Of a DNA stretch of 57,929 nucleotides, positions 1 to 15,504 are shown in pieces (positions within the stretch are counted from its first letter, which is position 1; each line of letters begins with the position of its first letter). The notes under the pieces were generated by a model, which saw only the letters and a list, made by a program, of their open reading frames with translations, searched no databases and was not told the DNA's origin. Origin of the DNA: a virus (lineage: Duplodnaviria > Heunggongvirae > Uroviricota > Caudoviricetes); the IMG/VR virus record IMGVR_UViG_2698536610_000002, one strand, 5' to 3'. Position numbers and translations under genes: made by a program.

Positions 1-1143
1 CTATGCTGTTTTGATATCTACGATAACCCAGTCTTTACCACGATCATCATTGTATCGGTCGGTCATTTTTCTGGATTTATGGCCTAACAACTTTTGCGTA
101 TCCAGACCCTGTTCCCGATATAACCGTTCTGACAGAGATCGCTGCTCATGAAATGTGGGCGCAGTTCCTTGCTCCCATTTTATGCCACATTTTTCCCTGG
201 CCTTTTTAAAAGCCGTTGTCAGAGTATTTGCAGAAACCTGGTCTCCTCTGTTTGCTTGAGAGGTAGTGTGACGGTAATGGACCAGATATTTACTAACAAC
301 AGCATCCCTGCACTGAGATATAACTTCACGAAGGGTAATATTCAGAGCATCGCATTTCAGGTTAAGCGGAATAGCAAGTTTTGAACCGGTTTTTTCCTGA
401 GTAATGTGCAACATGTCGTCCCATATATCAGAGAATTTCAAATTGCAGATATCGCCTAAACGTTGTCCAGTAACAAGAGCAAGTAGCATGCCGCATTTTA
501 AATAGGGCTGCCGTCTGCTTACGCTTTCAAATATTGCCTGCCATTCGGGCAGTGACAATCTTTGGCGGTTTACTCGATTTCGCGGTTGTTTTGTTGCCTG
601 CGCTGGGTTAAATCCTGGCGGAACATGTCCTGCGTGTTGTGCTTCTTTGAAGACGTCGATCAACACCATTCTCACGACTTGCGCCATCCTGTTATGACCT
701 TCAGCCTTTACAGCATCAATTATTTCGGCAATATCAAGTGCGGTAATATCCTTGAGGTGTTGCATTCCACAATGCTCACGGAAAAGACGAATGGGTTTGC
801 CTTTTTGCCGATAGGAGTTGGGTCTTAGTTCATTATGTTGCAGCCTGTCCTCCTGGATAGAAATATATTTATCAAGCCATTCTGTCACCGTAATGTCTGA
901 GCGCCTGCCTTTCATTCTTTCCAGACGCTCATTGACGCTTAATATTTGTCTGGTACGTTGTTCAGCAATAATGGTATTTGCTTCAGTAGCAACTTGTTTT
1001 GCTTCATTCTCATCAGTTCCTAAGCTATGAAAACGACCGGATAGTGGATGTTTGTATTGCCAATATACCTTTCCGGTTCGCTTATCTAATTTGCAATATA
1101 AATTGGGTATAGAGATTTTGTGAGATCGGGGTCTAGCAGCCAT
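1..1143 (-). CDS. int: Phage tyrosine integrase (lambda Int family)
   Basis: 380-aa ORF; C-terminal FHEQRSLSERLY...LLGHKS...RYNDDRG aligns with the lambda Int catalytic region; overlaps the downstream xis-like gene. Confidence 0.9.
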   Translation of the reverse strand: MAARPRSHKISIPNLYCKLDKRTGKVYWQYKHPLSGRFHSLGTDENEAKQVATEANTIIAEQRTRQILSVNERLERMKGRRSDITVTEWLDKYISIQEDRLQHNELRPNSYRQKGKPIRLFREHCGMQHLKDITALDIAEIIDAVKAEGHNRMAQVVRMVLIDVFKEAQHAGHVPPGFNPAQATKQPRNRVNRQRLSLPEWQAIFESVSRRQPYLKCGMLLALVTGQRLGDICNLKFSDIWDDMLHITQEKTGSKLAIPLNLKCDALNITLREVISQCRDAVVSKYLVHYRHTTSQANRGDQVSANTLTTAFKKAREKCGIKWEQGTAPTFHEQRSLSERLYREQGLDTQKLLGHKSRKMTDRYNDDRGKDWVIVDIKTA

Positions 1144-1369
1144 CAGCGATTATCCGTTGGAGTTTTGGGTTTGCGTTTATTGGGAGTTGCGGTTCTGCCA
1201 GCGTTCCTACAAAACGGGAATTTCGGTCAATCATCCAGTAGCGACCAACTTTTATAGCGGGTGGGGCCATCATTTTCCCTTGCGCGTATTTTTTCAGAAC
1301 TCGCTCACTTGGTGCTAAGTCCCCAAATTCTTCTTTAGCCCAGTCCTGTAAAGTGATTAGTCGAGACAT
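1133..1369 (-). CDS. xis: Excisionase (Xis-like)
   Basis: 78-aa ORF, N-terminus MSRLITLQDW resembles lambda Xis MYLTLQEW; strong SD (gaggagg) upstream; 11-nt overlap with int. Confidence 0.7.
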   Translation of the reverse strand: MSRLITLQDWAKEEFGDLAPSERVLKKYAQGKMMAPPAIKVGRYWMIDRNSRFVGTLAEPQLPINANPKLQRIIADGC

Positions 1370-1508
1370 TTGTCCTCCTCTTAGCTGCTGAGGGAGTTTG
1401 TGACCGATATATCTGACATGATATTAAGCTCATGGCAGGTACATCTCTTGACTGGTCATAGAGATAAATTTAATGCTGAGAAATGCAGTATTGAATTTAT
1501 CAATTTTT

Positions 1509-1748
1509 CTATTTCCTGCGTATGGCACGTAACTTCTTAATGTGTTCTGCCGTTTCGATCTCTTCTGCTATCCGATCTGCATCAGCTTTATTCACAGGTT
1601 CAAAGTCATGATTAAAGCGGAACATGCTGGCGATACATGTTCTGCCTTTTCGGATGTAGTGAACTTTGTTGTGGGTAGAACGCAGGATTTTGCAGGGAGT
1701 GCCGTGGTGGTCGACGTACCAGGTGTTAGGAAAAATGATTCTGAACAT
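1509..1748 (-). CDS. Hypothetical early-region protein
   Basis: 79-aa ORF in the int-exo small-ORF block; no recognisable motif. Confidence 0.4.
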   Translation of the reverse strand: MFRIIFPNTWYVDHHGTPCKILRSTHNKVHYIRKGRTCIASMFRFNHDFEPVNKADADRIAEEIETAEHIKKLRAIRRK

Positions 1749-1795
1749 TTTTACACCTCAGTTGGACGATGTTGAAATTTGCTGCTTTGAGGCCA

Positions 1796-2014
1796 TCACA
1801 ATCCCCATTGTTTGTTCTTAAGTTCGATCTCCTCCTGGCAACTTGCACAAGTCCGACAACCCTGAACGGCCAGGCGTCTTCGTTCATCTATGGGATCGCC
1901 ACACTTACAACAATGAGTGGCAGATATAGCCTGGTGGTTCAGACGACGCATTTTTATTGCTGTATTGCGCTGTAATTCTTCGATTTCTGATGCTGAATCA
2001 ATGATGTCTGCCAT
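1796..2014 (-). CDS. TraR/DksA-family C4 zinc-finger protein
   Basis: 72 aa with CCKCGDPIDERRRLAVQGCRTCASC four-cysteine motif typical of phage TraR-like proteins. Confidence 0.7.
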   Translation of the reverse strand: MADIIDSASEIEELQRNTAIKMRRLNHQAISATHCCKCGDPIDERRRLAVQGCRTCASCQEEIELKNKQWGL

Positions 2015-2112
2015 CTTCCATTAATCCCTGAATTGTTGGTTAATACGCTTGAGGGTGAATGCGAATAATAAAAAAGGAGCCTGTAGCTCCCTGATGATTT
2101 TGCTTTTCATGT

Positions 2113-2328
2113 TCATCGCTCCTTAAAGAAGCCGTTTAACATGCCGATCGCCAGGCTTAAATGAGTCGGTGTGAATCCCATCAGCGTTACCGTTTCGCGG
2201 TGCTTCTTCAGTACGCTACGGCAAATGTCATCGACGTTTTTATCCGGAAACTGCTGTCTGGCTTTTTTGATTTCAGAATTAGCCTGACGGGCAATGCTGC
2301 GAAGGGCGTTTTCCTGCTGAGGTGTCAT
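2113..2328 (-). CDS. Hypothetical protein
   Basis: ORF track 2113-2394; start moved to the internal Met (MTPQQENAL...) because the upstream extension is Cys/His-rich and overlaps the neighbour. Confidence 0.4.
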   Translation of the reverse strand: MTPQQENALRSIARQANSEIKKARQQFPDKNVDDICRSVLKKHRETVTLMGFTPTHLSLAIGMLNGFFKER

Positions 2329-2404
2329 TGAACAAGTCCCATGTCGGCAAGCATAAGCACACAGAATATGAAGCCCGCTGCCAGAAAAATGCATTCAGTG
2401 GTTG

Positions 2405-2596
2405 TCATACCTGGTCTCTCTCATCTGCTTCTGCTTTCGCCACCATCATTTCCAGCTTTTGTGAAAGGGATGCGGCTAACGTATGAAATTCTTCGTCTGT
2501 TTCTACTGGTATTGGCACAAACCTGACTCCAATTTGAGCGAGGCTATGTGCCATCTCGATACTCGTTCTTAACTCAACGGGAGATGCTTTATGCAT
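2405..2596 (-). CDS. Hypothetical protein
   Basis: 63-aa ORF in the small-ORF block between exo and xis. Confidence 0.35.
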   Translation of the reverse strand: MHKASPVELRTSIEMAHSLAQIGVRFVPIPVETDEEFHTLAASLSQKLEMMVAKAEADERDQV

Positions 2597-2757
2597 ACAG
2601 CCCCCCGTTTATTATTTATCTTCTCAGCCAGCCGCTGTGCTTTCAGTGGATTTCTGATAACAGAAAGGCCGGGAAATACCCAGCCTCGCTTTGTAATGGA
2701 GTAGACGAAAGTGATCGCGCCTACCCGGATATTATCGTGAGGATGCGTCATCGCCAT
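2569..2757 (-). CDS. Hypothetical protein
   Basis: 62-aa ORF immediately downstream of exo; overlaps both neighbours, so the call is tentative. Confidence 0.25.
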
Positions 2758-3428
2758 TGCTCCCCAAATACAAAACCAATTTCAGCCAGTGCCTCGTCCA
2801 TTTTTTCGATGAACTCCGGCACCATCTCGTCAAAACTCGCTATGTACTTTTCATCCCGCTCAATCACGACATAATGCAGGCCTTCACGCTTCATGCGCGG
2901 GTCATAGTTGGCAAAGTACCAGGCATCTTTTCGCGTCACCCACATGCTGTACTGCACCTGGGCCATGTAAGCCGATTTTATTGCCTCAAAACCACCGAGC
3001 CGGAATTTCATGAAATCCCGGGAGGTAAACGGGCATTTCAGTTCAAGGCCGTTGCCGTCACTGCATAAACCATCTGGAGAGCAGGCGGTGCGCATACTTT
3101 CGTCGCGATAGATGATCGGGGATTCAGTAACATTCACGCCGGAAGTGAATTCAAACAGGGTTCTGGCGTCGTTCTCGTACTGTTTTCCCCAGGCCAGCGC
3201 CTTAGCATTAACTTCCGGAGCCACACCGGTGCAAACCTCAGCCAGCAGGGTGTGGAAGTAGGACATTTTCATGTCAGGCCACTTCTTTCCTGAGCGGGGC
3301 TTTGCTATCACGTTGTGAACTTCTGAAGCGGTGATGACGCCGAGCCGTAATTTGTGCCATGCATCATCCCCCTGTTCGACAGCTCTCACGTCGATCCCGG
3401 TACGCTGCAGGATAATGTCCGGTGTCAT
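2748..3428 (-). CDS. exo: Lambda-type 5'-3' exonuclease (Red alpha)
   Basis: 226 aa; [36 protein letters not shown]... matches lambda Exo essentially along its whole length (from memory). Confidence 0.95.
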
Positions 3429-4210
3429 GCTGCCACCTTCTGCTCAGTGGCTTTCTGTTTCAGGAATCCAAGAGCTTTCACTGCTTCGGCCTGTGTCAGT
3501 TCTGACGATGCGCGAATGTCGCGGCGAAATATCTGGGAACAGAGCGGCAATAAGTCGTCATCCCATGTTTTATCCAGGGCGATCAGCAGAGTGTTAATCT
3601 CCTGCATGGTTTCATCGTTAACCGGAGTGATGTCGCGTTCCGGCTGACGTTCTGCAGTGTATGCAGTATTTTCGACAATGCGCTCGGCTTCATCCTTGTC
3701 ATAGATACCAGCAAATCCGAAGGCCAGACGGGCACACTGAATCATGGCTTTATGCCGTAACATCCGTTTGGGATGCGACTGCCACGGTCCGGTGATTTCT
3801 CTGCCTTCGCGGGTTTTGAATGGTTCGCGGCGGCATTCATCCATCCACTCGGTAACGCAGATCGGATGATTACGGTCCTTGCGGTAAATCCGGCATGTAC
3901 AGGATTCATTGTCCTGCTCAAAGTCCATGCCATCAAACTGCTGGTTTTCATTGATGATGCGGGACCAGCCATCAACGCCCACCACCGGAACGATGCCGTT
4001 CTGCTTATCAGGGAAGGCGTAAATTTCTTTCGTCCACGGATTAAGGCCGTACTGGTTGGCGACGATCAACAATGCGATGAACTGCGCATCGCTGGCATCA
4101 CCTTTAAATGCCGTCTGGCGAAGAGTGGTGATCAGTTCCTGTGGGTCGACAGAATCCATGCCGACACGTTCAGCCAGCTTCCCTGCCAGCGTTGCGAGTG
4201 CTGTACTCAT
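3425..4210 (-). CDS. bet: Recombinase Bet (Red beta)
   Basis: 261 aa; [48 protein letters not shown]... matches lambda Bet. Confidence 0.95.
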
Positions 4211-4215
4211 CCGTT

Positions 4216-4512
4216 TTATACCTCTGAATCAATATCAACCTGGTGGTGGGCAATAGTTTCAACCATGTACCGGATGTGTTCTGCCATGCGTTCCTGAAAC
4301 TCAACATCGTCATCAAACGCACGGGTAATGGCTTTTTTGCTGGCCCCGTGGCGTTGCAAATGATCGATGCATAGCGATTCAAACAGGTGCTGAGGCAGGC
4401 CTTTTTCCATGTCGTCTGCCAGTTCTGCCTCTTTCTCTTCACGGGCGATCTGCTGGTAGTGACGCGCCCAGCTCTGAGCCTCAAGACGATCCTGAATGTA
4501 ATAAGCGTTCAT
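4216..4512 (-). CDS. gam: Gam, RecBCD inhibitor (short form)
   Basis: 98 aa, [56 protein letters not shown]... equals lambda GamS. Confidence 0.9.
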
Positions 4513-4587
4513 GGCTGAACTCCTGAAAATGGCTGTGAAAATATCGCCCGCGAAATGCCAGGCTGATTAGGAAAACAGGAAAGGGGA

Positions 4588-4998
4588 TTAGTGATTCAGG
4601 CCGTTACCGCGTCCGTCGAGAAAAACTTCCACGAGCAAATCACGGGTATAAGTGCGCTCGATGCCGCGATGCAGATATAGCCGTCCGCGTAAATTAGCTG
4701 ATGCAGTCCAGGTACCATCTTTGTGTTTGACCAGCATTCCTGGCATGACCGCACCTCGATTAACGGTCTGCGTTCCGTAATGTTGATGAACCATAAAAAC
4801 TCCTGCCCGTAAGCTGGGCTGCTGAACATATAGAGACTTCTGCGCGTATTCAGGCGGTGGATGGCCGCCGGTTGTCATAACTAAGCCGCCTCGTTGAAGC
4901 GACTGAGGTATGAGGTGTTGAGTTGATTTCAGCTGGTCACACCGACGTTCACACGTCCGTTTCACCCCTCGCACTCCCCGTAGCCTGCTGAAATTCAA
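4588..4998 (-). CDS. Hypothetical ORF in the N/kil/cIII position (unassigned)
   Basis: 136-aa ORF with Arg-rich N-terminus; no match to lambda N, kil, cIII or ral that I can recognise; may not be a real gene. Confidence 0.2.
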
Positions 4999-5087
4999 GC
5001 TGCAGATCTAAGCGGTCATCGCAACGGTGAAGCGGTAAATCAGAAGATTGCCGCATTCCTGTGCCGTTGTGATGGATTTATAATACC

Positions 5088-5117
5088 CATTGCTATTAAT
5101 CATATCAATACGTATTG
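5088..5117. promoter_or_regulatory. Candidate OL operator half-sites
   Basis: cattgctatta (5088-5098) and aatacgtattg (5107-5117) resemble the operator-like repeats in the cI-cro intergenic region; located in an AT-rich gap left of the immunity genes. Confidence 0.4.
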
Positions 5118-5352
5118 GTATCAATCGATAGCATTTGTTGTTATGCTGTTGATACTGAAAAGAATTTAATGTTGAGGTTTTTTGTGACATTCGACTCAAA
5201 ATGGATTTTGCAATTAAATAACCAATTGATAACAATGAAAACATCACGGAGAACTAGATAGGCCAAATTACTTGCCACGAAGATAGTTGTAAGCGTTGAT
5301 AACAATGGTATTGAGGAGGGATACCCCCGACAATTGCGTCAGGGGGGAGGGA

Positions 5353-5739
5353 TTATTGGGCTTTAATGTAATTTTTCAACTTTGCAGTTTGCTCTACAGC
5401 GCTAGGAATGCATCCAAACATATTTGCGCATGAGGTTTGAACAACAATTTCGTTCTTATCGTTTCCTAAAGGTGTTTTTACAACCTGATATCCAAGCACG
5501 GCACTATTTCCAATAGGAGTGTATGTGGAAATTACCGTTTCATCTGCCATCTGAATTTTCCAACCAGAATTCATTGCTATCCAAGCTTTGGCTCTCGACC
5601 AATATGTATCGCATTGCTCTTTACCTTGACAGTAAACTGGTTGTTGAGCTTGTGCGGCAATTTGGGGATCTATTTTCTGAGCACATCCAGAGATGCTAAT
5701 CAGAATAGCTGCTGTAACGAATAGTTTTCTCATTGACAT
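5353..5739 (-). CDS. Lipoprotein (signal peptide with lipobox ISGC), candidate exclusion/lysogenic-conversion protein
   Basis: 128 aa; MSMRKLFVTAAILISISGC at the N-terminus; AT-rich gene directly downstream of cI on the same strand (the position occupied by rexAB in lambda). Confidence 0.6.
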   Translation of the reverse strand: MSMRKLFVTAAILISISGCAQKIDPQIAAQAQQPVYCQGKEQCDTYWSRAKAWIAMNSGWKIQMADETVISTYTPIGNSAVLGYQVVKTPLGNDKNEIVVQTSCANMFGCIPSAVEQTAKLKNYIKAQ

Positions 5740-5781
5740 TTCCTTTGTTTTGAATATACAACAAATAAATTGGCAAAAAAA

Positions 5782-6474
5782 TTATCCGTGTTTTCTATAT
5801 GTCTGCGGCATGCTTCCAATGACTTTACCGAAGATGAACACCCGGTTCATCTCGTCTTTCTCGATCGGGTCCCACGGTGAGTAGCTCTTGTTATCAGAGA
5901 TAACCAGCAGCTTATCCTTCATCATTTGCAGGCGCTTTACATGGGCTGTGTCGTCGTACAGAAACGCATAGATACCATCACCGTCGAAAGATTTAACAGT
6001 GATATCAACGAACAAAAGATCACCTGGTTCGATCGTTCCTGACATGCTGTCACCGCGTACGTTAATGATGCGGATATTTTCTGCCTTCCTGCCATCGAAC
6101 ATGTGACGAGCATCGTCAAACGAGTACTCAACCGAGCGTAGAACTTCTACAAACTCACGATTGATGACACCCGGCCCGGCACTGACTTCTATATCAAGAA
6201 CGTCAATCTTGAAGTATTTGGAATGGCTGACAGCAGGCTTCCCTGATTGTTGACCGTCATTTCTCATCGGGCCTATGCCTGATGAGAGCCACTCTGTTCG
6301 AACACCCAATGCATTAGCTATTTCAACAATTTTTGTTGAGCCGCGCGCGTTGCCGCTTGTCAGTCTCCAGATTGTGGGTTGAGCTACGCCAGACGCCTTT
6401 GCAAGAGCGCCTTGAGACATTCCAGATTGTTCCATCGCTAGGTTTAAGCGATCAGCAAGAGTTTCTTTTTTCAT
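5782..6474 (-). CDS. cI: CI-type repressor (N-terminal HTH, C-terminal S24 LexA-like peptidase domain)
   Basis: Start set at MKKETLADRL; HTH region SQGALAKASGVAQPTIWRL; C-terminal domain with GDSM Ser motif and VKRL Lys motif typical of autocleaving repressors. Confidence 0.85.
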   Translation of the reverse strand: MKKETLADRLNLAMEQSGMSQGALAKASGVAQPTIWRLTSGNARGSTKIVEIANALGVRTEWLSSGIGPMRNDGQQSGKPAVSHSKYFKIDVLDIEVSAGPGVINREFVEVLRSVEYSFDDARHMFDGRKAENIRIINVRGDSMSGTIEPGDLLFVDITVKSFDGDGIYAFLYDDTAHVKRLQMMKDKLLVISDNKSYSPWDPIEKDEMNRVFIFGKVIGSMPQTYRKHG

Positions 6475-6485
6475 AAGTTTTAATT

Positions 6486-6568
6486 TATACGCTTGCGTAT
6501 TGATGGTCAAAACACGTTTTGCTATTGATTGGGTTAATACGCATTGCTATTATCTATTCATTGCAATA
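6486..6568. promoter_or_regulatory. Candidate OR operators and divergent PRM/PR region
   Basis: Imperfect palindrome tatacgcttgcgtat (6486-6500), taatacgcattgctatta (6535-6552) and cattgcaata (6559-6568) between divergent cI and cro. Confidence 0.5.
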
Positions 6569-6584
6569 CCAATAGGAATTGATA

Positions 6585-6812
6585 ATGACAAATCAAACCA
6601 TTCAACTCGCAATCAGTATTACAGGTAGTCAAAAACGACTGGCAGATCTCTGCGGTGTAGCCCAACCCACGGTTTGGCGTTGGCTACACGGTGGCGGAAT
6701 TGATGCCCGCTATGTAATGAAAATTGTCTCAGCCACTGGTGGAAAGATTAAACCAGCAGATATTCGTCCCGACCTCGCACCATTGTTTAACGTGAGTAAT
6801 TCTTCCGCCTAA
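6585..6812 (+). CDS. cro: Cro-like HTH regulator (YdaS-like)
   Basis: ATG at 6585 with SD aggaa 6 nt upstream; HTH QKRLADLCGVAQPTVWRWL; divergent from cI. Confidence 0.75.
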   Translation: MTNQTIQLAISITGSQKRLADLCGVAQPTVWRWLHGGGIDARYVMKIVSATGGKIKPADIRPDLAPLFNVSNSSA

Positions 6813-6842
6813 TCTGCGGAGTTAACTGATAAGGCAATTACT

Positions 6843-7382
6843 ATGCAACCAATTACATACCAACAGACTAGCGGATTTACCCCGGCTGCGGTGATAAATC
6901 GTTCTCAAACAAAACAGGCGCCAGGCCACGAAAAAATCCGTGATGCCGTTCGCGCCTGGTCGGCTGCAGATAATCAGGATGTTGTTGCCGCACTCATTGT
7001 GAATGAGTATCGGGAGCAGGGCGGCGGCACCATCGATTTCCCTGATGATGTCAGCCGTGCACGCCAGAAGCTGTTCCGCTTCCTCGATAACAAATTCGAT
7101 TCTGAAAAATACCGAAATAACGTGCGTGAACTGACCCCGGCAATTCTGGCGGTACTACCGCTGGAATATCGCGGTTACCTGGTTGAGCAGGATAGCTTCA
7201 TGGCTAGGTTGGCTGAAATGGAAAAGGAACTCAGTGAGGCAAAACAGGCTGTCATTCTCAACGCACCACGCCACCAGAAACTGAAGGAAATTAGTGAAGG
7301 TATTGTGTCGATGTTTCGTGTGGACCCAGATCTGGCTGGTCCATTGATGGCGATGGTTACTACCATGCTGGGGGCGATATGA
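6843..7382 (+). CDS. CII-like regulator (CP76/YdaT family)
   Basis: 179 aa in the cII position; segment LTPAILAVLPLEYR resembles my recollection of YdaT/CII-like prophage regulators; assignment by position and weak memory. Confidence 0.45.
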   Translation: MQPITYQQTSGFTPAAVINRSQTKQAPGHEKIRDAVRAWSAADNQDVVAALIVNEYREQGGGTIDFPDDVSRARQKLFRFLDNKFDSEKYRNNVRELTPAILAVLPLEYRGYLVEQDSFMARLAEMEKELSEAKQAVILNAPRHQKLKEISEGIVSMFRVDPDLAGPLMAMVTTMLGAI

Positions 7383-7468
7383 CAGGTTCAGAAATGGCGA
7401 AAGCCGGTCTGCTGGAACAGAACCGACTTTCAGGTGCAAATCGTAACACACTCATTGCGGGAGGAATT

Positions 7469-8398
7469 ATGGCAAACACTGCTGAGATATTCAATTTTCC
7501 TGTGCCGGATGTGGCACAAAAGGAGCCGCGCGTGGCAGATCTCGATGATGGTTATACGCGCATTGCAAATGAGTTGCTGGAAGCTGTGATGCTGGCCGGA
7601 TTAACACAGCACCAGCTTCTGGTCTTCCTGGCTGTCATGCGCAAAACATATGGCTTTAATAAAAAACTGGATTGGGTGAGCAACGAGCAACTTTCCGAGT
7701 TGACCGGGATATTGCCGCACAAGTGTTCTGCTGCAAAAAGTGTTCTGGTAAAGCGTGGGATTTTTATTCAGAGCGGGCGGAATATCGGCATTAATAATGT
7801 GATCAGTGAATGGTCAACATTACCCGAATCAGGTAAGAAAAATAAAGTTTACCTGAAAGAGGTAAATTTACCTGAATCAGGTAAGAAAAGTTTACCCAAA
7901 TCAGGTAAAGGCGTTTACCCGAATCAGGTAAACACAAAAGACAAACTAACAAAAGACAATATAAAACCTTTTTCGTCCGAGAATTCTGGCGAATCCTCTG
8001 ACCAGCCAGAAAACGATCTTCCTGTGGTGAAACCGGATGCTGCAATTCAGAGCGGCAGCAAGTGGGGGACAGCAGAAGACCTGACCGCCGCAGAGTGGAT
8101 GTTTGACATGGTGAAGACCATCGCGCCATCAGCCAGAAAACCGAATTTTGCAGGGTGGGCTAACGATATCCGCCTGATGCGTGAACGTGACGGACGTAAC
8201 CACCGCGACATGTGCGTGCTGTTCCGCTGGGCATGCCAGGACAACTTCTGGTCCGGTAACGTGCTAAGTCCGGCCAAACTCCGCGACAAGTGGACCCAAC
8301 TCGAAATCAACCGTAACAAGCAACAGGCTGGCGTGACAGCCGGAAAATCAAAACTCGACCTGACAAACACTGACTGGATTTATGGGGTGGATTTATGA
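7469..8398 (+). CDS. O: Replication initiator O
   Basis: Start set at MANTAEIFNF (lambda O starts MTNTAKILNF); N-terminal VADLDDGY...KTYGFNK conserved; iterons embedded in the coding sequence. Confidence 0.9.
   Translation: MANTAEIFNFPVPDVAQKEPRVADLDDGYTRIANELLEAVMLAGLTQHQLLVFLAVMRKTYGFNKKLDWVSNEQLSELTGILPHKCSAAKSVLVKRGIFIQSGRNIGINNVISEWSTLPESGKKNKVYLKEVNLPESGKKSLPKSGKGVYPNQVNTKDKLTKDNIKPFSSENSGESSDQPENDLPVVKPDAAIQSGSKWGTAEDLTAAEWMFDMVKTIAPSARKPNFAGWANDIRLMRERDGRNHRDMCVLFRWACQDNFWSGNVLSPAKLRDKWTQLEINRNKQQAGVTAGKSKLDLTNTDWIYGVDL
7820..7932 (+). repeat. ori iterons (four ~18-19 bp direct repeats) inside O, followed by an AT-rich tract
   Basis: ttacccgaatcaggtaag / tttacctgaaagaggtaaa / tttacctgaatcaggtaag / tttacccaaatcaggtaaa / tttacccgaatcaggtaaa, then aaaagacaaactaacaaaagacaatataaaa. 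Confidence 0.85.
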
Positions 8399-9081
8399 AA
8401 AACATCGCTGCACAGATGATTAACTTTGACCGTGAGCAGATGCGTCGAATCGCCAACAACATGCCGGAACAATACGACGAAAAGCCGCAGGTGCAGCAGG
8501 TGGCGCAGATCATCAACGGTGTGTTCAGCCAGTTACTGGCAACTTTCCCGGCGAGCCTGGCTAACCGCGACCAGAATGAGCTGAACGAAATCCGCCGTCA
8601 GTGGGTTATGGCTTTCCGTGAAAATGGAATTACCACTATGGAGCAGGTTAACGCCGGAATGCGCGTGGCCCGCCGACAGGAGCGACCATTCCTGCCGTCG
8701 CCCGGCCAGTTCGTAGCGTGGTGTAAGCAGAGTGGCGGGGCGTTAGGTATCACTGTTGACCAAGTCATAACCGAATACTGGGATTGGCGTAATCGTTCCT
8801 TCGAATTCACTTCCAGCGAGCATTTCCCGTGGTCACAGCCTGTCATGTACCACATCTGCGTCGAACTGCGCCACCGTAGCATTGAGCGCCAGTTAACGCA
8901 TGGCGAGCTGGCATGCGAGGCTGGTGACCTGCTGGACATGTGGGAGAAGCGCGTCAGTGAGGGCAAACCAATCCCTCCGGTCAGAAAACAAATCTCGGCT
9001 CCGCGCCACGTGCCCGGGCCGACTCCCGCTCAGCTTTTGCTTGAGCAATACAAAGCGCGTAAAGCAGTCGGATTTATTTAA
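8395..9081 (+). CDS. P: Replication protein P (helicase loader)
   Basis: 228 aa; MKNIAAQMINFDREQMRRIANNMPEQYDEKPQVQQVAQIINGVFSQLLATF matches lambda P N-terminus. Confidence 0.9.
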   Translation: MKNIAAQMINFDREQMRRIANNMPEQYDEKPQVQQVAQIINGVFSQLLATFPASLANRDQNELNEIRRQWVMAFRENGITTMEQVNAGMRVARRQERPFLPSPGQFVAWCKQSGGALGITVDQVITEYWDWRNRSFEFTSSEHFPWSQPVMYHICVELRHRSIERQLTHGELACEAGDLLDMWEKRVSEGKPIPPVRKQISAPRHVPGPTPAQLLLEQYKARKAVGFI

Positions 9082-9083
9082 CC

Positions 9084-9668
9084 ATGAACAAGAAATACAC
9101 GTTGATCTAAGCGGATCCGCCCTGGACGTACGAGGATAAATGCAATTCTGGTAAGCGTGGCACCGGGCATAAATACTTGGTTATGACGGTGCAGGATATC
9201 TGCTGGCTGCCAGTAAGGGAGCGGGTTGCAGAAAGCTGCCAGCTGGCGATGTGGTGGTTGCCAACTCAAACGTTCGAGGCGATGAAAGTCGTCGATGCCT
9301 GGGGATTTCGCCTGATCACAATGAAAGGTTTCACTTGGGATAAAACCTACCCGAAGCAAACTGACAAATCGGCGATGGGAATGGGACACCTGATCCGGGC
9401 GAACCGTGAAGATTGTCTTTTCGCGGTAAAGGGTAAGCGGGCACCACAGCAGGACGCCTCGATCATCCAGCACTACACCTCGCCGCGACATGAGCACTCA
9501 CGTAAACCAGACTGCGTGCGTGAAATGCTGGTTCGGTTGCTGGGTAATCTTCCACGTATTGAGCTCTTTGCGCGTAAATCCTCCCACGGTTTCGACGTAT
9601 GGGGAAACAAGTGTGATTCGCCAACCGTATCATTAAGCCCGGCCCGAGTTACTGATGTTTATTCTTAA
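9084..9668 (+). pseudogene. MT-A70-family DNA adenine methyltransferase interrupted by an in-frame TAA at codon 9
   Basis: ATG 9084 MNKKYTLI then TAA (9108-9110), then in-frame ADPPWTYEDK... (DPPW catalytic motif); the longest intact ORF starts only at 9177/9183, downstream of DPPW. Confidence 0.6.
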
Positions 9669-9879
9669 AAGAATTAACTGAAAAGAGGAAGGTTTGATGA
9701 GTTTTTTTACGTGAATTAACACGTAAGACTGCTGGTTATTAAACCATCACATTAGATATCTAAAAATTGTGATCGGTATCTCCCTACTATAAAAAAAAGT
9801 AGTTGAATATACGGTCTATACTTGAAATAAATAAAAGTATTCTTATTTTTTAGATTCTGTGTTGTGAAAAGGAATTTTT

Positions 9880-10911
9880 ATGTCCTCGAATATTTTATCT
9901 GGTGAAAAAGTAATCAATAAAATTGCTGAAAAGTTGAGCGATTATAAATATCCTCCGGCTGAAGGTATGAACTCTGAACATGTCAGCAAATGGATTAAGC
10001 AATTTGCAGTGGAGGATAGACGATTTATCTTAGATGAAACGCTTTATCTACTTAATGCAGGTTACCTATCCGAAAGTCAATATCAACGAAAAATAAAAGC
10101 CATTGCAAGAAGTGAAAAGAACGCGAAATTCTTCAGATATGCAGGTTTTTTAGATATTCAAAAAAAAGGTTCTAGTCAGAAGGAATTGCTTAAATCTCTT
10201 TATGAAACAGTAGGGATCAAATTTAACATCGTTACTGAATCATCAACTCAAGATGAAGTAAATAAATTTGATACATTTGTATATATTGATGATGTGTCGT
10301 TTTCAGGAGAAAAGGCCATCAAATCGATAAGTAATTTTGTTTTAAAATTTAATTTAAGAGATATTAAATTCAATGTATATTTTTTTTCATCTCATACGTT
10401 ATCTGACTATAATATAAAAAGACGATTAGAATATATTTTTAAGGATAGAAACATTTTTGTACACGTGAAGAATGGTGGTATGCGTGAGGTTGAAAACCGA
10501 AAAAGTCGTTCTGCTCAATCAGGTGTTTTCTGGCCAAGGAAATATAGTGTAGATACTCCCGAGAAATTCGAGGAGTGTGAGCTTTACAAAGGCGTATTCA
10601 GAGATGGATATGCCTCTTCTGATAGTTTTAGAAATGAAGCCTCAAGGGATCGTTTCGAATCTATCCTTACTAAAGTCGGCTTTAATATCTTGCTGCACAG
10701 GAAAACCCCTAGTGAGGTGCTCAAACCTCTAGGTTTTTCTACTTTTGACGGTTTGGGTTTTGGGGGAACAACATTTACTTATCGAAATTGCCCGAATAAT
10801 GTGCCGCTGGCTTTTTGGTGGGGAGATTATGAACCAACAGGTGCTCCCGCATTGGACTGCTGGTATCCACTAATGAAGCGGAATGGGTATAATGAGTGGT
10901 ATGAGCTATAG
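9880..10911 (+). CDS. Uncharacterised 343-aa protein, upstream partner of a NADAR gene
   Basis: AT-rich ORF with SD aagga 7 nt upstream; internal FVYIDDVSFSGEKA weakly resembles a PRPP-binding (PRTase) loop; no confident family assignment. Confidence 0.8.
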   Translation: MSSNILSGEKVINKIAEKLSDYKYPPAEGMNSEHVSKWIKQFAVEDRRFILDETLYLLNAGYLSESQYQRKIKAIARSEKNAKFFRYAGFLDIQKKGSSQKELLKSLYETVGIKFNIVTESSTQDEVNKFDTFVYIDDVSFSGEKAIKSISNFVLKFNLRDIKFNVYFFSSHTLSDYNIKRRLEYIFKDRNIFVHVKNGGMREVENRKSRSAQSGVFWPRKYSVDTPEKFEECELYKGVFRDGYASSDSFRNEASRDRFESILTKVGFNILLHRKTPSEVLKPLGFSTFDGLGFGGTTFTYRNCPNNVPLAFWWGDYEPTGAPALDCWYPLMKRNGYNEWYEL

Positions 10912-11512
10912 ATTATATCCGCTACAGAACACAGTTTCCTTCAGGAAAACCACCGAAAAATGGGGGGGGCTTTCCAACATGGCTAAAGGATATCCATTGT
11001 TAATCAATGGGTTGCCTATTCAATCAAGTGAAATCCTTTACCAAGCATGCCGATATCCAGACTATCCGGATATACAAAAGGCCATCATTACTCAAGGAAA
11101 CCCCTATGAAGCCAAGCAGACCGCAAGATCGTTTGAATCCAAAACTCGCGCAGGATGGGATAAGAATCGAGTTTCGATTATGAAGTGGTGTGTATGCGTA
11201 AAATTATGCCAGAACTGGGATACGTTCTTTGCGCTGTTAGACAGTACAGGCGACCATTTCATCGTGGAACACTCAGAGAAGGACCAATTCTGGGGTGCCA
11301 GTAAAGACCCAGAAGGTAACTATTATGGTATGAACGTATTAGGGCGAATTCTCATGGACGTGAGAGGGGTTGCTAGGAAAAAGGGGGCTGATGGGTTTGC
11401 AACAATACCATCGCTATCTTTGGACAAATTTTTTCTCCTAGGCGAAAGAATTAAAGATGTAACATTTGTAGAGCCAACGCCTGGAGCAGGGCAAAGTTTA
11501 TCCTTGTTTTAG
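10883..11512 (+). CDS. NADAR-domain protein (YbiA-like N-glycosidase/ADP-ribose-processing superfamily)
   Basis: 209 aa; N-terminal GGLSNM-type signature (WGGLSNMAKGYPL) and overall YbiA/DUF1768-like layout; overlaps the upstream gene by 29 nt. Confidence 0.7.
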   Translation: MGIMSGMSYRLYPLQNTVSFRKTTEKWGGLSNMAKGYPLLINGLPIQSSEILYQACRYPDYPDIQKAIITQGNPYEAKQTARSFESKTRAGWDKNRVSIMKWCVCVKLCQNWDTFFALLDSTGDHFIVEHSEKDQFWGASKDPEGNYYGMNVLGRILMDVRGVARKKGADGFATIPSLSLDKFFLLGERIKDVTFVEPTPGAGQSLSLF

Positions 11513-11772
11513 CGTTCCATCTGGGGCATTTTCTTCCATAAATTAACTGGCGTACCTCCCTCGGCGTTTTTTTGTTGCCATAAAAGGTTTTTGATTTTCT
11601 ATAATCAACCAGCCATAATCATGTCACCGGAGCCTGAACAACTCCGGTGACTTCTGCGCTAAACGGGGACGTTTATGCGCACATACAATCTAAACTCTCT
11701 TCTCCCGCCACAGATGCAGAAATGCACCTGCGATTTTTTGCATCCAGCGTTTGACCTCTGCGGAGGTGAAGC

Positions 11773-12228
11773 GTGAACCTCCCACAAGACGGCATCAAAC
11801 TTCATCGCGGTAACTTCACCGCTATCGGTCAGCAGCTCCAGCCTTATCTGGAGGACGGCAAGTGCTTCCGCATGGTACTGAAGCCATGGCGCGATAAGCG
11901 CAGCCTGTCTCAAAATAGCTTAAGCCACATGTGGTACACCGAAATCAGCGAATACCTCATCAGCCGGGGTAAGACTTTCGCTACGCCAGAGTGGGTGAAG
12001 GATGCTCTGAAACACACTTATCTCGGTTATGAAACCAAAGAACTGGTTGATGTCGTAACCGGTGATATCACCACTATCCAGTCGTTACGCCATACCTCCG
12101 ATCTTGATACCGGAGAGATGTATGTCTTCCTGTGTAAGGTTGAAGCCTGGGCGATGAATATTGGTTGCCACCTGACTATTCCGCAGCGCTGCGAGTTCCA
12201 GCTGCTGCGCGACAAGCAGGAGGCGTAA
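11773..12228 (+). CDS. ybcN: NinB/YbcN-family protein
   Basis: GTG start with ggagg SD; 151 aa in the ninB position; recalled as a DLP12 YbcN homologue. Confidence 0.7.
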
Positions 12229-13177: not shown

Positions 13178-13262
13178 AGTCAGAGATAACAATCAACTAA
13201 TACTGTTTTGTTGATTTTTGCTTGTAATTGGCGTTCTGGTCTGATTTTTGTGGAGTAAGTTG

Positions 13263-13646
13263 ATGCGTGATATTCAGATGGTTCTTGAGCGTTGGGGAGC
13301 GTGGGCGGCTAATAATCATGAAGATGTGACCTGGTCGTCCATTGCCGCCGGTTTTAAGGGATTAATTACTTCAAAAGTAAAATCTCGCCCGCAATGTTGT
13401 GACGATGACGCGATGATTATTTGCGGGTGCATGGCCCGTCTGAAAAAGAACAACAGCGATTTGCACGATTTATTAGTAGATTATTATGTAGTCGGTATGA
13501 CATTCATGTCACTGGCAGGTAAGCATTGCTGCTCTGATGGTTATATCGGGAAAAGGTTACAGAAGGCTGAGGGCATAATTGAAGGGATGTTAATGGCATT
13601 AGATATCCGGTTAGAGATGGATATCGTTGTTAATAACTCTAATTAA
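13263..13646 (+). CDS. quuD: Late-gene antiterminator Q (QuuD-like)
   Basis: ATG 13263 with ggag SD; [24 protein letters not shown]...; sits upstream of the lysis cassette. Confidence 0.8.
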
Positions 13647-13765
13647 TATGCCAATTGTTTACTAAAAATTATTAAAAATGGGGCGTTGCAACGCCCCCAA
13701 AAATAAAGGGTAATATATAACAGAAGGTTTATATAGTTAGAAGCAAGGTTGTGCTCCTAAAGGAA

Positions 13766-13785
13766 GTGGCTTGAGGGAGCCACTT
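13766..13785 (-). terminator. Candidate rho-independent terminator downstream of the porin gene
   Basis: Hairpin agtggc-ttgaggga-gccact followed on the minus strand by uuccuuu; a second hairpin gggaggc-aaa-gcctccc lies at 13794-13810. Confidence 0.4.
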
Positions 13786-13834
13786 ATATGTTGGGGAGGC
13801 AAAGCCTCCCGCAACATATCTTTTAGTAATCAAA

Positions 13835-14917
13835 TTAGAACTGGTAAACCATACCTACAGCAACGATATCATCGGTAGCAACGCCAGATGCTTTCGTGAA
13901 ATCGCTCTTATCAATCAGGTTGATTTTGTAATCAACAAAAGTGGACATATTTTTGTTGAAGTAATAGGTTGCACCTACATCAATATATTCAACCAGGTCC
14001 TGATCACCCCACGCACCCAAGTCTTTTCCTTTAGATTGCAGGTAAGCAACGGACGGACGCAGACCGAAGTCGAACTGATATTGTGCAACTACTTCGAAGT
14101 TTTGTGCTTTGTTGGCAATATGGTTATTACCAAAAACAGTCATGTTCTGGGTTTCAGAATAGGTGGTAGCCAGATAGATGTTGTTCGCATCATATTTCAG
14201 ACCAGCTGCCCATACTTCAGCATTTTGACCAGATGCATTCAGGCTGTTGTTACCGTAGATAACCTGATTATTAGTGCGGTCAGATTTAGCATAGGTTGCA
14301 CCTACACCGAATCCTTCATACTCATAAGTAGTGGAGAAACCGAAACCATCACCATTAGCTTCAGTTACGTCAGTGCGGTCATTTTTACCCTGATACTGAG
14401 CAGCAAAGTTCAGACCATCAACCAGACCAAAGAAGTCGTTGTTACGATAAGTTGCAACACCAGTGGTGCGACCAGTCATGAACACATCTGTTTGGGTCCA
14501 GGTATCGCCACCGAATTCTGGCAGAACGTCAGTCCACGCACCGATGTCATATGCTACACCGTAGTTACGGCCGTAATCGATTGAGCCGTAGTCCCCGAAT
14601 TTCAGGCCTGCAAATGCAAGACGGGTTTTGTCTTTGGAGGAGCCTTGAGATTCAGCGCGGTTGCCTTTGAATTCATATTCCCACTGACCGAAACCAGTCA
14701 GTTGATCGTTGATTTGGGTTTCACCTTTGAAGCCAAGACGGGCATAAGTAGTATCACCATCATCTGCATCATTAGAGGAGAAGTAGTGCTTGGCATTAAC
14801 TTTCCCATATAGATCCAGCTTGTTACTGTCTTTATTATAAATTTCAGCTGCCTGAGCAGACATCGCCATCAGTACTGATGCAGCTACAGCAGAAATTGCC
14901 ACTGTTAATTTTTTCAT
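13835..14917 (-). CDS. nmpC: Outer-membrane porin (NmpC/OmpD-like), intact
   Basis: Start at [23 protein letters not shown] signal peptide; C-terminal ...VAVGMVYQF ending in Phe typical of porins. Confidence 0.9.
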
Positions 14918-15504
14918 CGTGAGCCCTTTTTTTGAACTATTATTAAAAAATGATGTCACTGCGCGATAAATATTCATCTAATCAATGTGATTATTTCAAG
15001 ATGTAAGTTTTAGTTTCTCATTTAATTTGTGAAGTAGATCTCTATTTTTATCTGAACTTTTTCTATCGAAACCTATTTATGGCTCTTATTTGAACAAAAA
15101 TAAACCTATTAGCTAATTTATATTAATGGTTGTTATTTATGGAGGTTCTATAATTCGGCAGTTTAATTTAAATCAACTAAAAATAACGCCTGAAATTATT
15201 TATTGGTTATTTGTTGAGGTTTTCTTATGTATTTGTGGTGGTGTTTTGAACACTCGGTAGCATTCTCATAAATATCATTCAGTGGTTTACGTACGTAAAA
15301 AATTGGTTATGCTGTTAAGAGTGGTTACTTCGTCACACAGCTTAAACCCGCCGTCGAGCTGGTTTTTCCATTTTCTGAGTCTCGATATTAGCTGATAACT
15401 CAATACCTGAGTTATTCACTGACTCCGAGTCTGTTACGTTTCTGCTTTTTTGCGATACGTTGTATTCCCTCAATTTACACCCGCTTTGTCTGCGAGGTGG
15501 GGTT

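Follow-up and report, generated by a model that had tools for sequence, protein, structure and literature searches.

A non-coding leader and a KilR-type kil gene in the place of N, nutL, tL1 and cIII in a lambda-like early left operon

The kil gene and the annotation of the locus

The window, that is, the whole 57,929-nucleotide stretch of caudoviral DNA that was analysed (IMG/VR record IMGVR_UViG_2698536610_000002), carries a lambda-like early left region on its minus strand (Table 1). We studied the span between gam and a lipoprotein-like moron, positions 4513–5352. An earlier note had described this span as lying between gam and the left operators and as containing only two overlapping minus-strand ORFs. 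Both ORFs are present, at 4588–4998 (136 aa, TTG start) and 4596–4829 (77 aa). The placement needs revision: the repeats shared by OL and OR and the pL promoter itself fall inside the span, and only about 561 nt are transcribed from the pL start (around 5073) to gam.

Table 1 Features of the early region in and around the studied span
Feature	Position	Strand	Basis and remarks
int	1–1143	−	Early-left region, lambda-like
xis	1133–1369	−	Early-left region, lambda-like
exo	2748–3428	−	Early-left region, lambda-like
bet	3425–4210	−	Early-left region, lambda-like
gam, 98 aa	4216–4512	−	Pfam Gam PF06064, E = 3.4e-65; Gam in RefSeq and phage records; left border of studied span
kil–gam spacer, 75 nt	4513–4587	−	Homologous to lambda
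kil, 68 aa	4588–4794	−	KilR/phi80-type FtsZ inhibitor family; ATG at 4794, AGGAG just before
Stretch from upstream ATG to kil	4795–4878	−	ATG at 4878–4876, in frame with kil; 28 codons into kil
Structured module, last ~120 nt of leader	4912–4795	−	blastn, nhmmer; hairpins A and B span 4853–4912
Leader core, ~125 nt	4913–5037	−	Lineage-specific, non-coding, single copy; G-rich then C-rich
Predicted 5'-terminal hairpin of pL transcript, first 56 nt	5018–5073	−	Fold; AUCACAACGG...CCGUUGCGAU
OL operator repeats	5067–5125		Common to OR (6483–6585); repeat families D1, D3, I1, I3, I4, I21
pL promoter, TTGATA-17-TATTAT	5080–5108	−	−35 at 5108–5103, −10 at 5085–5080; promoter scan, 10/12 matches
AT-rich spacer	5126–5352		Repeat families D4, D8; sequence read directly
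Lipoprotein-like moron	5353–5739		Right of studied span
cI	5782–6510		LexA-type
cro	6585–6812		YdaS-like
cII	6843–7382		YdaT-like
O, P, nin genes, then Q	Q at 13248–13646		Right of cII

By profile comparison, the 136-aa ORF ends in a 68-codon kil gene of the KilR/phi80 type. Residues 60–136 match PHROG 294 ('Kil protein'; E = 2.5e-38, profile positions 4–80 of 83), the same family into which Rac KilR and phi80 Kil fall in this library. Residues 69–136 match NCBIfam NF008465 ('FtsZ inhibitor protein'; E = 9.5e-17, profile positions 1–70 of 73), with a score of 60.8 bits that lies under the curated 92-bit cut-off, which was built on Rac KilR. In identical prophages, the RefSeq CDS WP_000233576.1, 'phage encoded cell division inhibitor protein', corresponds exactly to 4588–4794. 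Homologues were found at 79–100% identity in 33 phage records and at 38–58% in 12 more. Rac KilR is an inhibitor of FtsZ and cell division (PMC12482147), and the family annotation suggests the same activity for the Kil of the window. No homologue of lambda Kil (47 aa, PHROG 3924) was found among the ORFs of 4513–5352 with Pfam or PHROGs, and lambda Kil itself was detected as a control. The earlier note, which reported neither N nor kil nor cIII here, was therefore mistaken about kil; the profile search of the 136-aa ORF that it proposed returned Kil families.

The remaining coding potential does not correspond to genes. The upstream half of the 136-aa ORF contains an in-frame TAG in PhiR34_1, IdasGreatGrand, PhiR5_1 and PhiR68_2 and a 5-nt indel in some viral contigs, which shows that it is not conserved as coding sequence. 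Neither the 77-aa ORF nor the smaller ORFs matched any family in Pfam, NCBIfam or PHROGs. We conclude that the upstream half of the 136-aa ORF and the 77-aa ORF are not genes. An Arg-rich N-terminus of the 136-aa ORF was considered as a cryptic N and ruled out by the stop codons and the 5-nt indel in relatives.

Annotation of this locus is inconsistent among the records of PhiR34_1, PhiR68_2, Turner, 1W, 3W, Perceval and PhiR47_2, where it appears as an out-of-frame 77-aa 'hypothetical protein', as a 'membrane carboxypeptidase' or as a 128–139-aa 'Kil' that includes non-coding leader. All of these calls cover the 68-aa kil plus non-coding leader and can be corrected on this basis. Some records annotate a 96-aa form of Kil that begins at the upstream ATG.

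The pL transcript and its leader

The pL promoter is embedded in the operator repeats, and its transcript is predicted to start at about 5073 with a 279-nt untranslated leader, followed by kil, gam, bet and exo. The short spacer between kil and gam holds a weak hairpin and T-run at 4563–4546 in a terminator-like scan, and its sequence is common to lambda and all relatives. In related phages, −35 and −10 elements of their own lie at the same distance from the conserved start ATCGCAAC. When eight phages are aligned, conservation of the leader begins at the first base, although the operators and repressors that precede it represent at least four immunity types. Among at least 15 phages that differ in their immunity regions, the leader core is 96–98% identical, and 76 viral contigs contain 44 sequence variants of the leader. 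Its 5' 160 nt were found, always unannotated, in 2210 of the 5426 complete E. coli genomes (41%). In the phage, viral-contig and E. coli collections that were searched, all copies recovered were near-identical, at 86% identity or above in the 5' part. Conservation from +1 over at least four immunity types, together with the presence of the 5' part in 2210 genomes, exceeds what a passive spacer would need. A literature search for leader sequences found no publication describing this one. The prophage sRNA svsR (PMC12803456), considered as a possible match, lies inside cI and is unrelated to the leader.

The earlier note had suggested folding the minus-strand transcript. A 5'-terminal hairpin is indeed predicted, the stem base of which is kept in relatives as AUCGCAAC/GUUGCGAU; the leader as a whole folds with an unremarkable energy (z −0.95). 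Two viral-contig variants lack the hairpin, and the promoter there abuts TTCACCG. RNAalifold, applied to eight leaders, returned no compensatory pairs for the 5' 160 nt, as these sequences differ too little from one another, and the 76 viral contigs contributed further variants but no informative covariation.

The structured module at the 3' end of the leader has matches (blastn, nhmmer) in phi80, HK225, HK639, Salmonella phage S9-5 and Enterobacter phage CobraSix. Hairpin A (37 nt, 4912–4876) encloses the upstream AUG in its outer pairs, CAUA/UAUG, and the same fold is found in five versions with differing stem sequences, that is, with compensatory changes. Hairpin B (4869–4853) reads GGCGG-CCAUCCA-CCGCC. 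The ATG corresponding to the upstream ATG opens a separate uORF of 20–21 codons in phi80, HK225 and HK639 (21 codons in phi80), whereas in the window it is in frame with kil. The nucleotides around the ATG are nevertheless kept across different reading frames (CobraSix, HK639), which indicates that the module is conserved at the RNA or DNA level. Each of these five phages has an intrinsic terminator whose T-run directly precedes the module: the annotated tL1A downstream of N in phi80, and one of the two terminators annotated downstream of the putL-like RNA in HK639. This terminator is missing in the window, where the leader core abuts the module at CATACC.

The layout of leader, kil, gam, bet and exo recurs at 96–98% identity in Perceval, 4A7, Lambda_4C10, the PhiR series, Turner and IdasGreatGrand. 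This bears on the possibility, raised in the earlier note, that the early left operon is degenerate. A decayed remnant of a defective prophage that had lost N would account for the lack of N, cIII, ral, sieB and ea10 relative to lambda. However, the phages that share the layout were recovered as particles or plaques (isolated or induced), kil, gam, bet and exo are intact, and Kil is 100% identical in all of the best 80 of 537 viral-contig matches. Since the architecture is found in viable phages and the 5' part of the leader in 41% of E. coli genomes, the operon is not degenerate, and decay is a highly improbable explanation. The absence of N and cIII is real, yet ordinary for a very common, viable prophage lineage.

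Upstream of pL and OL, the AT-rich spacer contains two exact direct copies of the 12-bp sequence TTGATAACAATG (5226–5237 and 5296–5307, 70 bp apart) and a 25-nt stretch at 5208–5232 with 72% identity to part of OR (6561–6585). These elements may be extra repressor or Cro sites. ORFs of 79 and 54 aa in the spacer gave no family matches in Pfam or PHROGs. A GC-rich inverted repeat at 5324–5347, just after the stop codon of the upstream gene, was considered as a terminator of the cI-moron transcript and rejected, as it lacks a U-tract and was not called by the terminator scan.

Search for an N-type or put-type antitermination system

Among the ORFs of at least 30 aa in 4513–5352, no match to N, Nun or cIII was found in Pfam, NCBIfam or PHROGs, in agreement with the earlier note. 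The PHROG library recognised all positive controls, namely lambda N (PHROG 271), HK022 Nun, lambda cIII and lambda Kil. The span holds no protein like HK022 Nun (PHROG 5632; control HK022 Nun, E = 2e-70) and, by Pfam and PHROGs, no homologue of lambda CIII (54 aa, PHROG 550). No boxA-like GCTCTTTAA with up to one mismatch occurs on the transcribed strands of 4400–7500, and the gap between cro and cII is only 30 nt, which leaves no room for nutR and tR1 on the right side. In lambda, the N/nutL/tL1 gate occupies the same map place, between OL/pL and the recombination genes. Relative to lambda, then, the window is without N, nutL and its boxA, tL1, sieB, ral, ea10, cIII and a lambda-type Kil, and its right operon is without the nutR/tR1 interval and tR2; N, nutL, tL1, sieB, ral, ea10 and cIII are all replaced by the leader-kil module.

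A divergent trans-acting antiterminator, unlike known N proteins and encoded elsewhere in the early region, could in principle act on the leader. N proteins are very divergent, phi80 N sits in a PHROG of unknown function, and the pR operon includes two genes of unknown function (9880–10911 and 10883–11512) that could be considered. We regard such a protein as improbable: neither a boxA nor a boxB-like nut element was seen downstream of pL or cro, there is no room for nutR, no ORF at the position of N is kept open in relatives, and no candidate gene has any supporting feature. The divergent antitermination protein envisaged in the earlier note thus finds no candidate in the span, where kil, with its in-frame upstream ATG, is the only ORF kept open in relatives.

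Lambdoid phages that lack N are common, and put RNA is usually assumed for them, as stated for phage LLS (PMC12315714), and the earlier note had likewise pointed to put RNAs as in HK022. We built a put covariance model from seven sequences (HK022 putL and putR, HK639, CobraSix, S9-5, phiEt88 and PdC23), which describe a two-stem RNA of about 70 nt with stem I GAACGGC...GUCGG and stem II GGCGGG...AGGA...GGCAAU. As a control, the model recovered the phiEt88 putR outside the training set with 58.3 bits. With filters off, it gave no match at E ≤ 10 in positions 1–12000, which include the leader (5073–4795), and none in 20 related loci. An Rfam scan of 3500–8000 at E ≤ 10 likewise returned nothing in 4513–5352. 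A second leader copy downstream of pR, which would be the analogue of putR, was not found in the window by nhmmer or local alignment. In sequence and structure, the HK022-type put explanation is refuted.

A degenerate member of the put family deserves separate mention. The predicted transcript carries AGGAA-N3-GGCAAU at +14 to +27, enclosed by a 3-bp stem, and over its first 35 nt (…CACAGGAAUGCGGCAAU…) it is similar to the apex of put stem II; the kil module downstream is common to put-carrying phages. However, stem I is wholly absent; in put RNA, which acts on the zinc-binding domain of the RNA polymerase β' subunit and is blocked by rpoC mutations, this stem bears the platform for that domain (PMC9378689). 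In addition, the non-canonical GGCGGG/CAAU pairs are not reproduced. The motif is not kept in the closest relatives, which have ACAACGAUACGGCAAC instead, and the loose pattern, expected about once per window by chance, was found three times. Given also that the put model is blank here at E ≤ 10 even with its speed filters off, we assign a degenerate put next to no probability. The resemblance at +10 to +27, being unconserved and lacking both stem I and a model score, is attributed to chance. Tested in one of the most widespread prophage lineages of E. coli, the put assumption for N-less lambdoids therefore does not hold.

Expression of the operon without an N-type gate

To place the leader-kil module, we compared it with known systems. 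HK022 and HK639, like the window, are lambdoids that lack N and whose pL transcript opens with an RNA element, and HK639, CobraSix and S9-5 share the post-terminator module and a KilR-type kil with it. In contrast to HK022 and HK639, the window has no put, no Nun, no second element downstream of pR and no terminator between leader and kil. The early left region of phi80 is arranged as pL-nutL-N-tL1A-[module]-tL1B-orfs-kil, with a homologous Kil (41% identity) and the same module, including its ATGACAACCGGCGGCCATCCACCG core, upstream of the kil region. The N, nutL and tL1A of phi80, the last of these immediately before the module, are all missing from the window. The shared module sits just upstream of tL1B, which is annotated as Rho-dependent. 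On the minus strand of phi80 (JX871397), an unannotated hydrophobic ORF of about 70 codons (MSDLELGLKIYALWFVGTFLL...) at ~2130–2339 spans the annotated tL1B.

The Rac prophage, with its racR-ydaS-ydaT immunity, offers another parallel. The window shares its Kil family (PHROG 294), has a YdaS-like Cro and a YdaT-like CII, and likewise lacks an N gene; Rac kilR, like the kil of the window, is preceded by a long non-coding stretch. The two leaders are not homologous: no homology was found between the leader and the Rac kilR 5'UTR or KilS, the sRNA derived from this 5'UTR (PMC8175672). Rac also differs in having sieB, ydaF and ydaG between repressor and kilR and in using recET for recombination, whereas in the window kil comes first and is followed by the lambda-type gam-bet-exo. 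Rac kilR is kept silent by NusG and Rho, and its toxicity is unmasked on NusG depletion (PMC5793797); silencing of horizontally acquired genes by NusG is attributed to Cardinale et al. 2008, as cited in PMC5793797.

In prophages of Citrobacter, Kluyvera, Enterobacter and Silvania, too, kil is the gene nearest to a pL-like promoter; their leaders are unrelated to that of the window, and put is absent. In a set of loci from such prophages and a MAG contig (L019–L025), the leader region lies within about 330 nt upstream of kil. These leaders start with ATCG(C/A)(G/C)AAC right after the −10 element and share the core GTTCCGCCAGCCTGGCGACAAGGGCAAAG, and some of them have an extra long hairpin of about 110 nt. 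In one of the contigs, L024, HK022-like operators are followed by a leader of this kind where putL would be.

Intrinsic terminators were sought with a simple pattern search, which is blind to Rho-dependent sites. From pL to the end of exo it found only weak hairpin/T-run sites, and from pR to Q only weak terminator-like sites, with no convincing intrinsic terminator; the lambda tR2 sequence has no counterpart in the right operon. Given these weak sites and the absence of both tR2 and a nutR/tR1 interval, the promoter-proximal early genes look reachable without N. Between exo and xis/int, however, the minus strand retains two lambda terminator-like sequences unchanged, at 2687–2665 and 2092–2074, the counterparts of which lie at ~31,287 and ~30,691 in lambda. 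We take the one at 2687–2665 to be lambda tL3. In lambda, pL transcripts pass these terminators only when N-modified.

Our preferred explanation, which we hold with roughly even credence, is that the proximal operon is N-independent and free of terminators, and that a regulatory 5'UTR for the toxic kil now stands where the N/tL1 gate would be. The cI-controlled pL would start an RNA near 5073 that runs through the leader straight into kil, gam, bet and exo. After loss of the repressor, RNA polymerase would reach kil-gam-bet-exo as well as O-P-Q without meeting a strong terminator, and no N-type gate would be needed. The leader would act as the regulatory 5'UTR of kil, in which hairpin A may occlude the upstream AUG in frame with kil. 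Within the untranslated leader, C/G is 1.4–1.7 over about 100 nt (4953–4850), and this C-rich stretch and the module resemble a Rho entry region. Expression of kil and the genes downstream could then be tuned by translation-coupled escape from Rho, with no dedicated antiterminator. A Rho-sensitive, translation-coupled control of kil is a reasonable inference from the C-rich stretch, the position of the module next to tL1B in phi80 and the NusG/Rho precedent of Rac. Rho dependence, the transcription start and the use of the upstream AUG are all predictions.

Four observations count against the N-independent, regulatory 5'UTR. The fold energy of the whole leader is ordinary, and its 5' part lacks covariation. 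The conservation of the leader from +1 over at least four immunity types, with its 5' part in 2210 genomes, goes beyond the needs of a passive spacer. The leader of contig L024 sits exactly in the place of putL. Finally, the retained terminators, crossed in lambda only by N-modified transcripts, leave the expression of xis and int for excision unaccounted for.

The main rival is a new cis-acting RNA. The conserved leader (core 5037–4913, with or without the 3' module) might render RNA polymerase resistant to termination and so be an analogue of put without similarity to it. Such an element would be needed in the left operon only, which alone retains lambda-type terminators before xis/int; none is recognisable in the right operon. 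Consistent with this, the leader begins at +1 of pL, as putL does, is kept over the different immunity types and in a large share of E. coli genomes, and has an analogue in L024 that replaces putL behind HK022-like operators; moreover, put and the kil module occur together in HK639, CobraSix and S9-5. On the other hand, the leader resembles neither put by covariance model nor any Rfam family, its 5' 160 nt show no compensatory pairs, its fold energy is ordinary, the 5' hairpin is dispensable in some variants, and the leaders of other genera are not homologous. On balance, we consider an antiterminator leader unlikely. We also asked whether Q might load at pL, and found no similarity between pL or the leader and the region downstream of Q.

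With similar reserve, we suggest that the leader could represent a new class of regulatory RNA, either a cis-acting processive antiterminator that replaces both N/nut and put and carries pL transcription past the retained lambda terminators to xis/int, or a Rho- and translation-gated riboregulator of kil. If it acts as an antiterminator or as a Rho-gated switch, thousands of genomes would contain a new and unannotated regulatory RNA before a gene that is lethal to the host once derepressed. If the leader is only a 5'UTR, as in the N-independent operon that we favour, the lineage shows that a lambda-like phage can do entirely without the timing gate of N/tL1 and tR1/tR2.

Three further elements were noted outside the studied span. 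A gap of 140 nt upstream of xis contains, at 1463–1501, an AT-rich inverted repeat of 16 bp (GATAAATTTAATGCTG...CAGTATTGAATTTATC), which may serve as an operator or as a bidirectional terminator and bears on the expression of xis and int without N. On the plus strand at 11591–11651, a promoter-like TTGATT-17-CATAAT precedes a perfect 10-bp hairpin (GTCACCGGAG/CTCCGGTGAC) that lacks a U-tract; this element lies in a 260-nt gap upstream of ninB, the place of tR2 in lambda. The interval 13680–14977, between Q and the lysis genes, holds on the opposite strand a gene for a 380-aa protein of unknown function (PHROG 410) together with a strong terminator (GGGGCGTTGCAACGCCCC and a T-run, 13697–13680), a moron in the pR' region.
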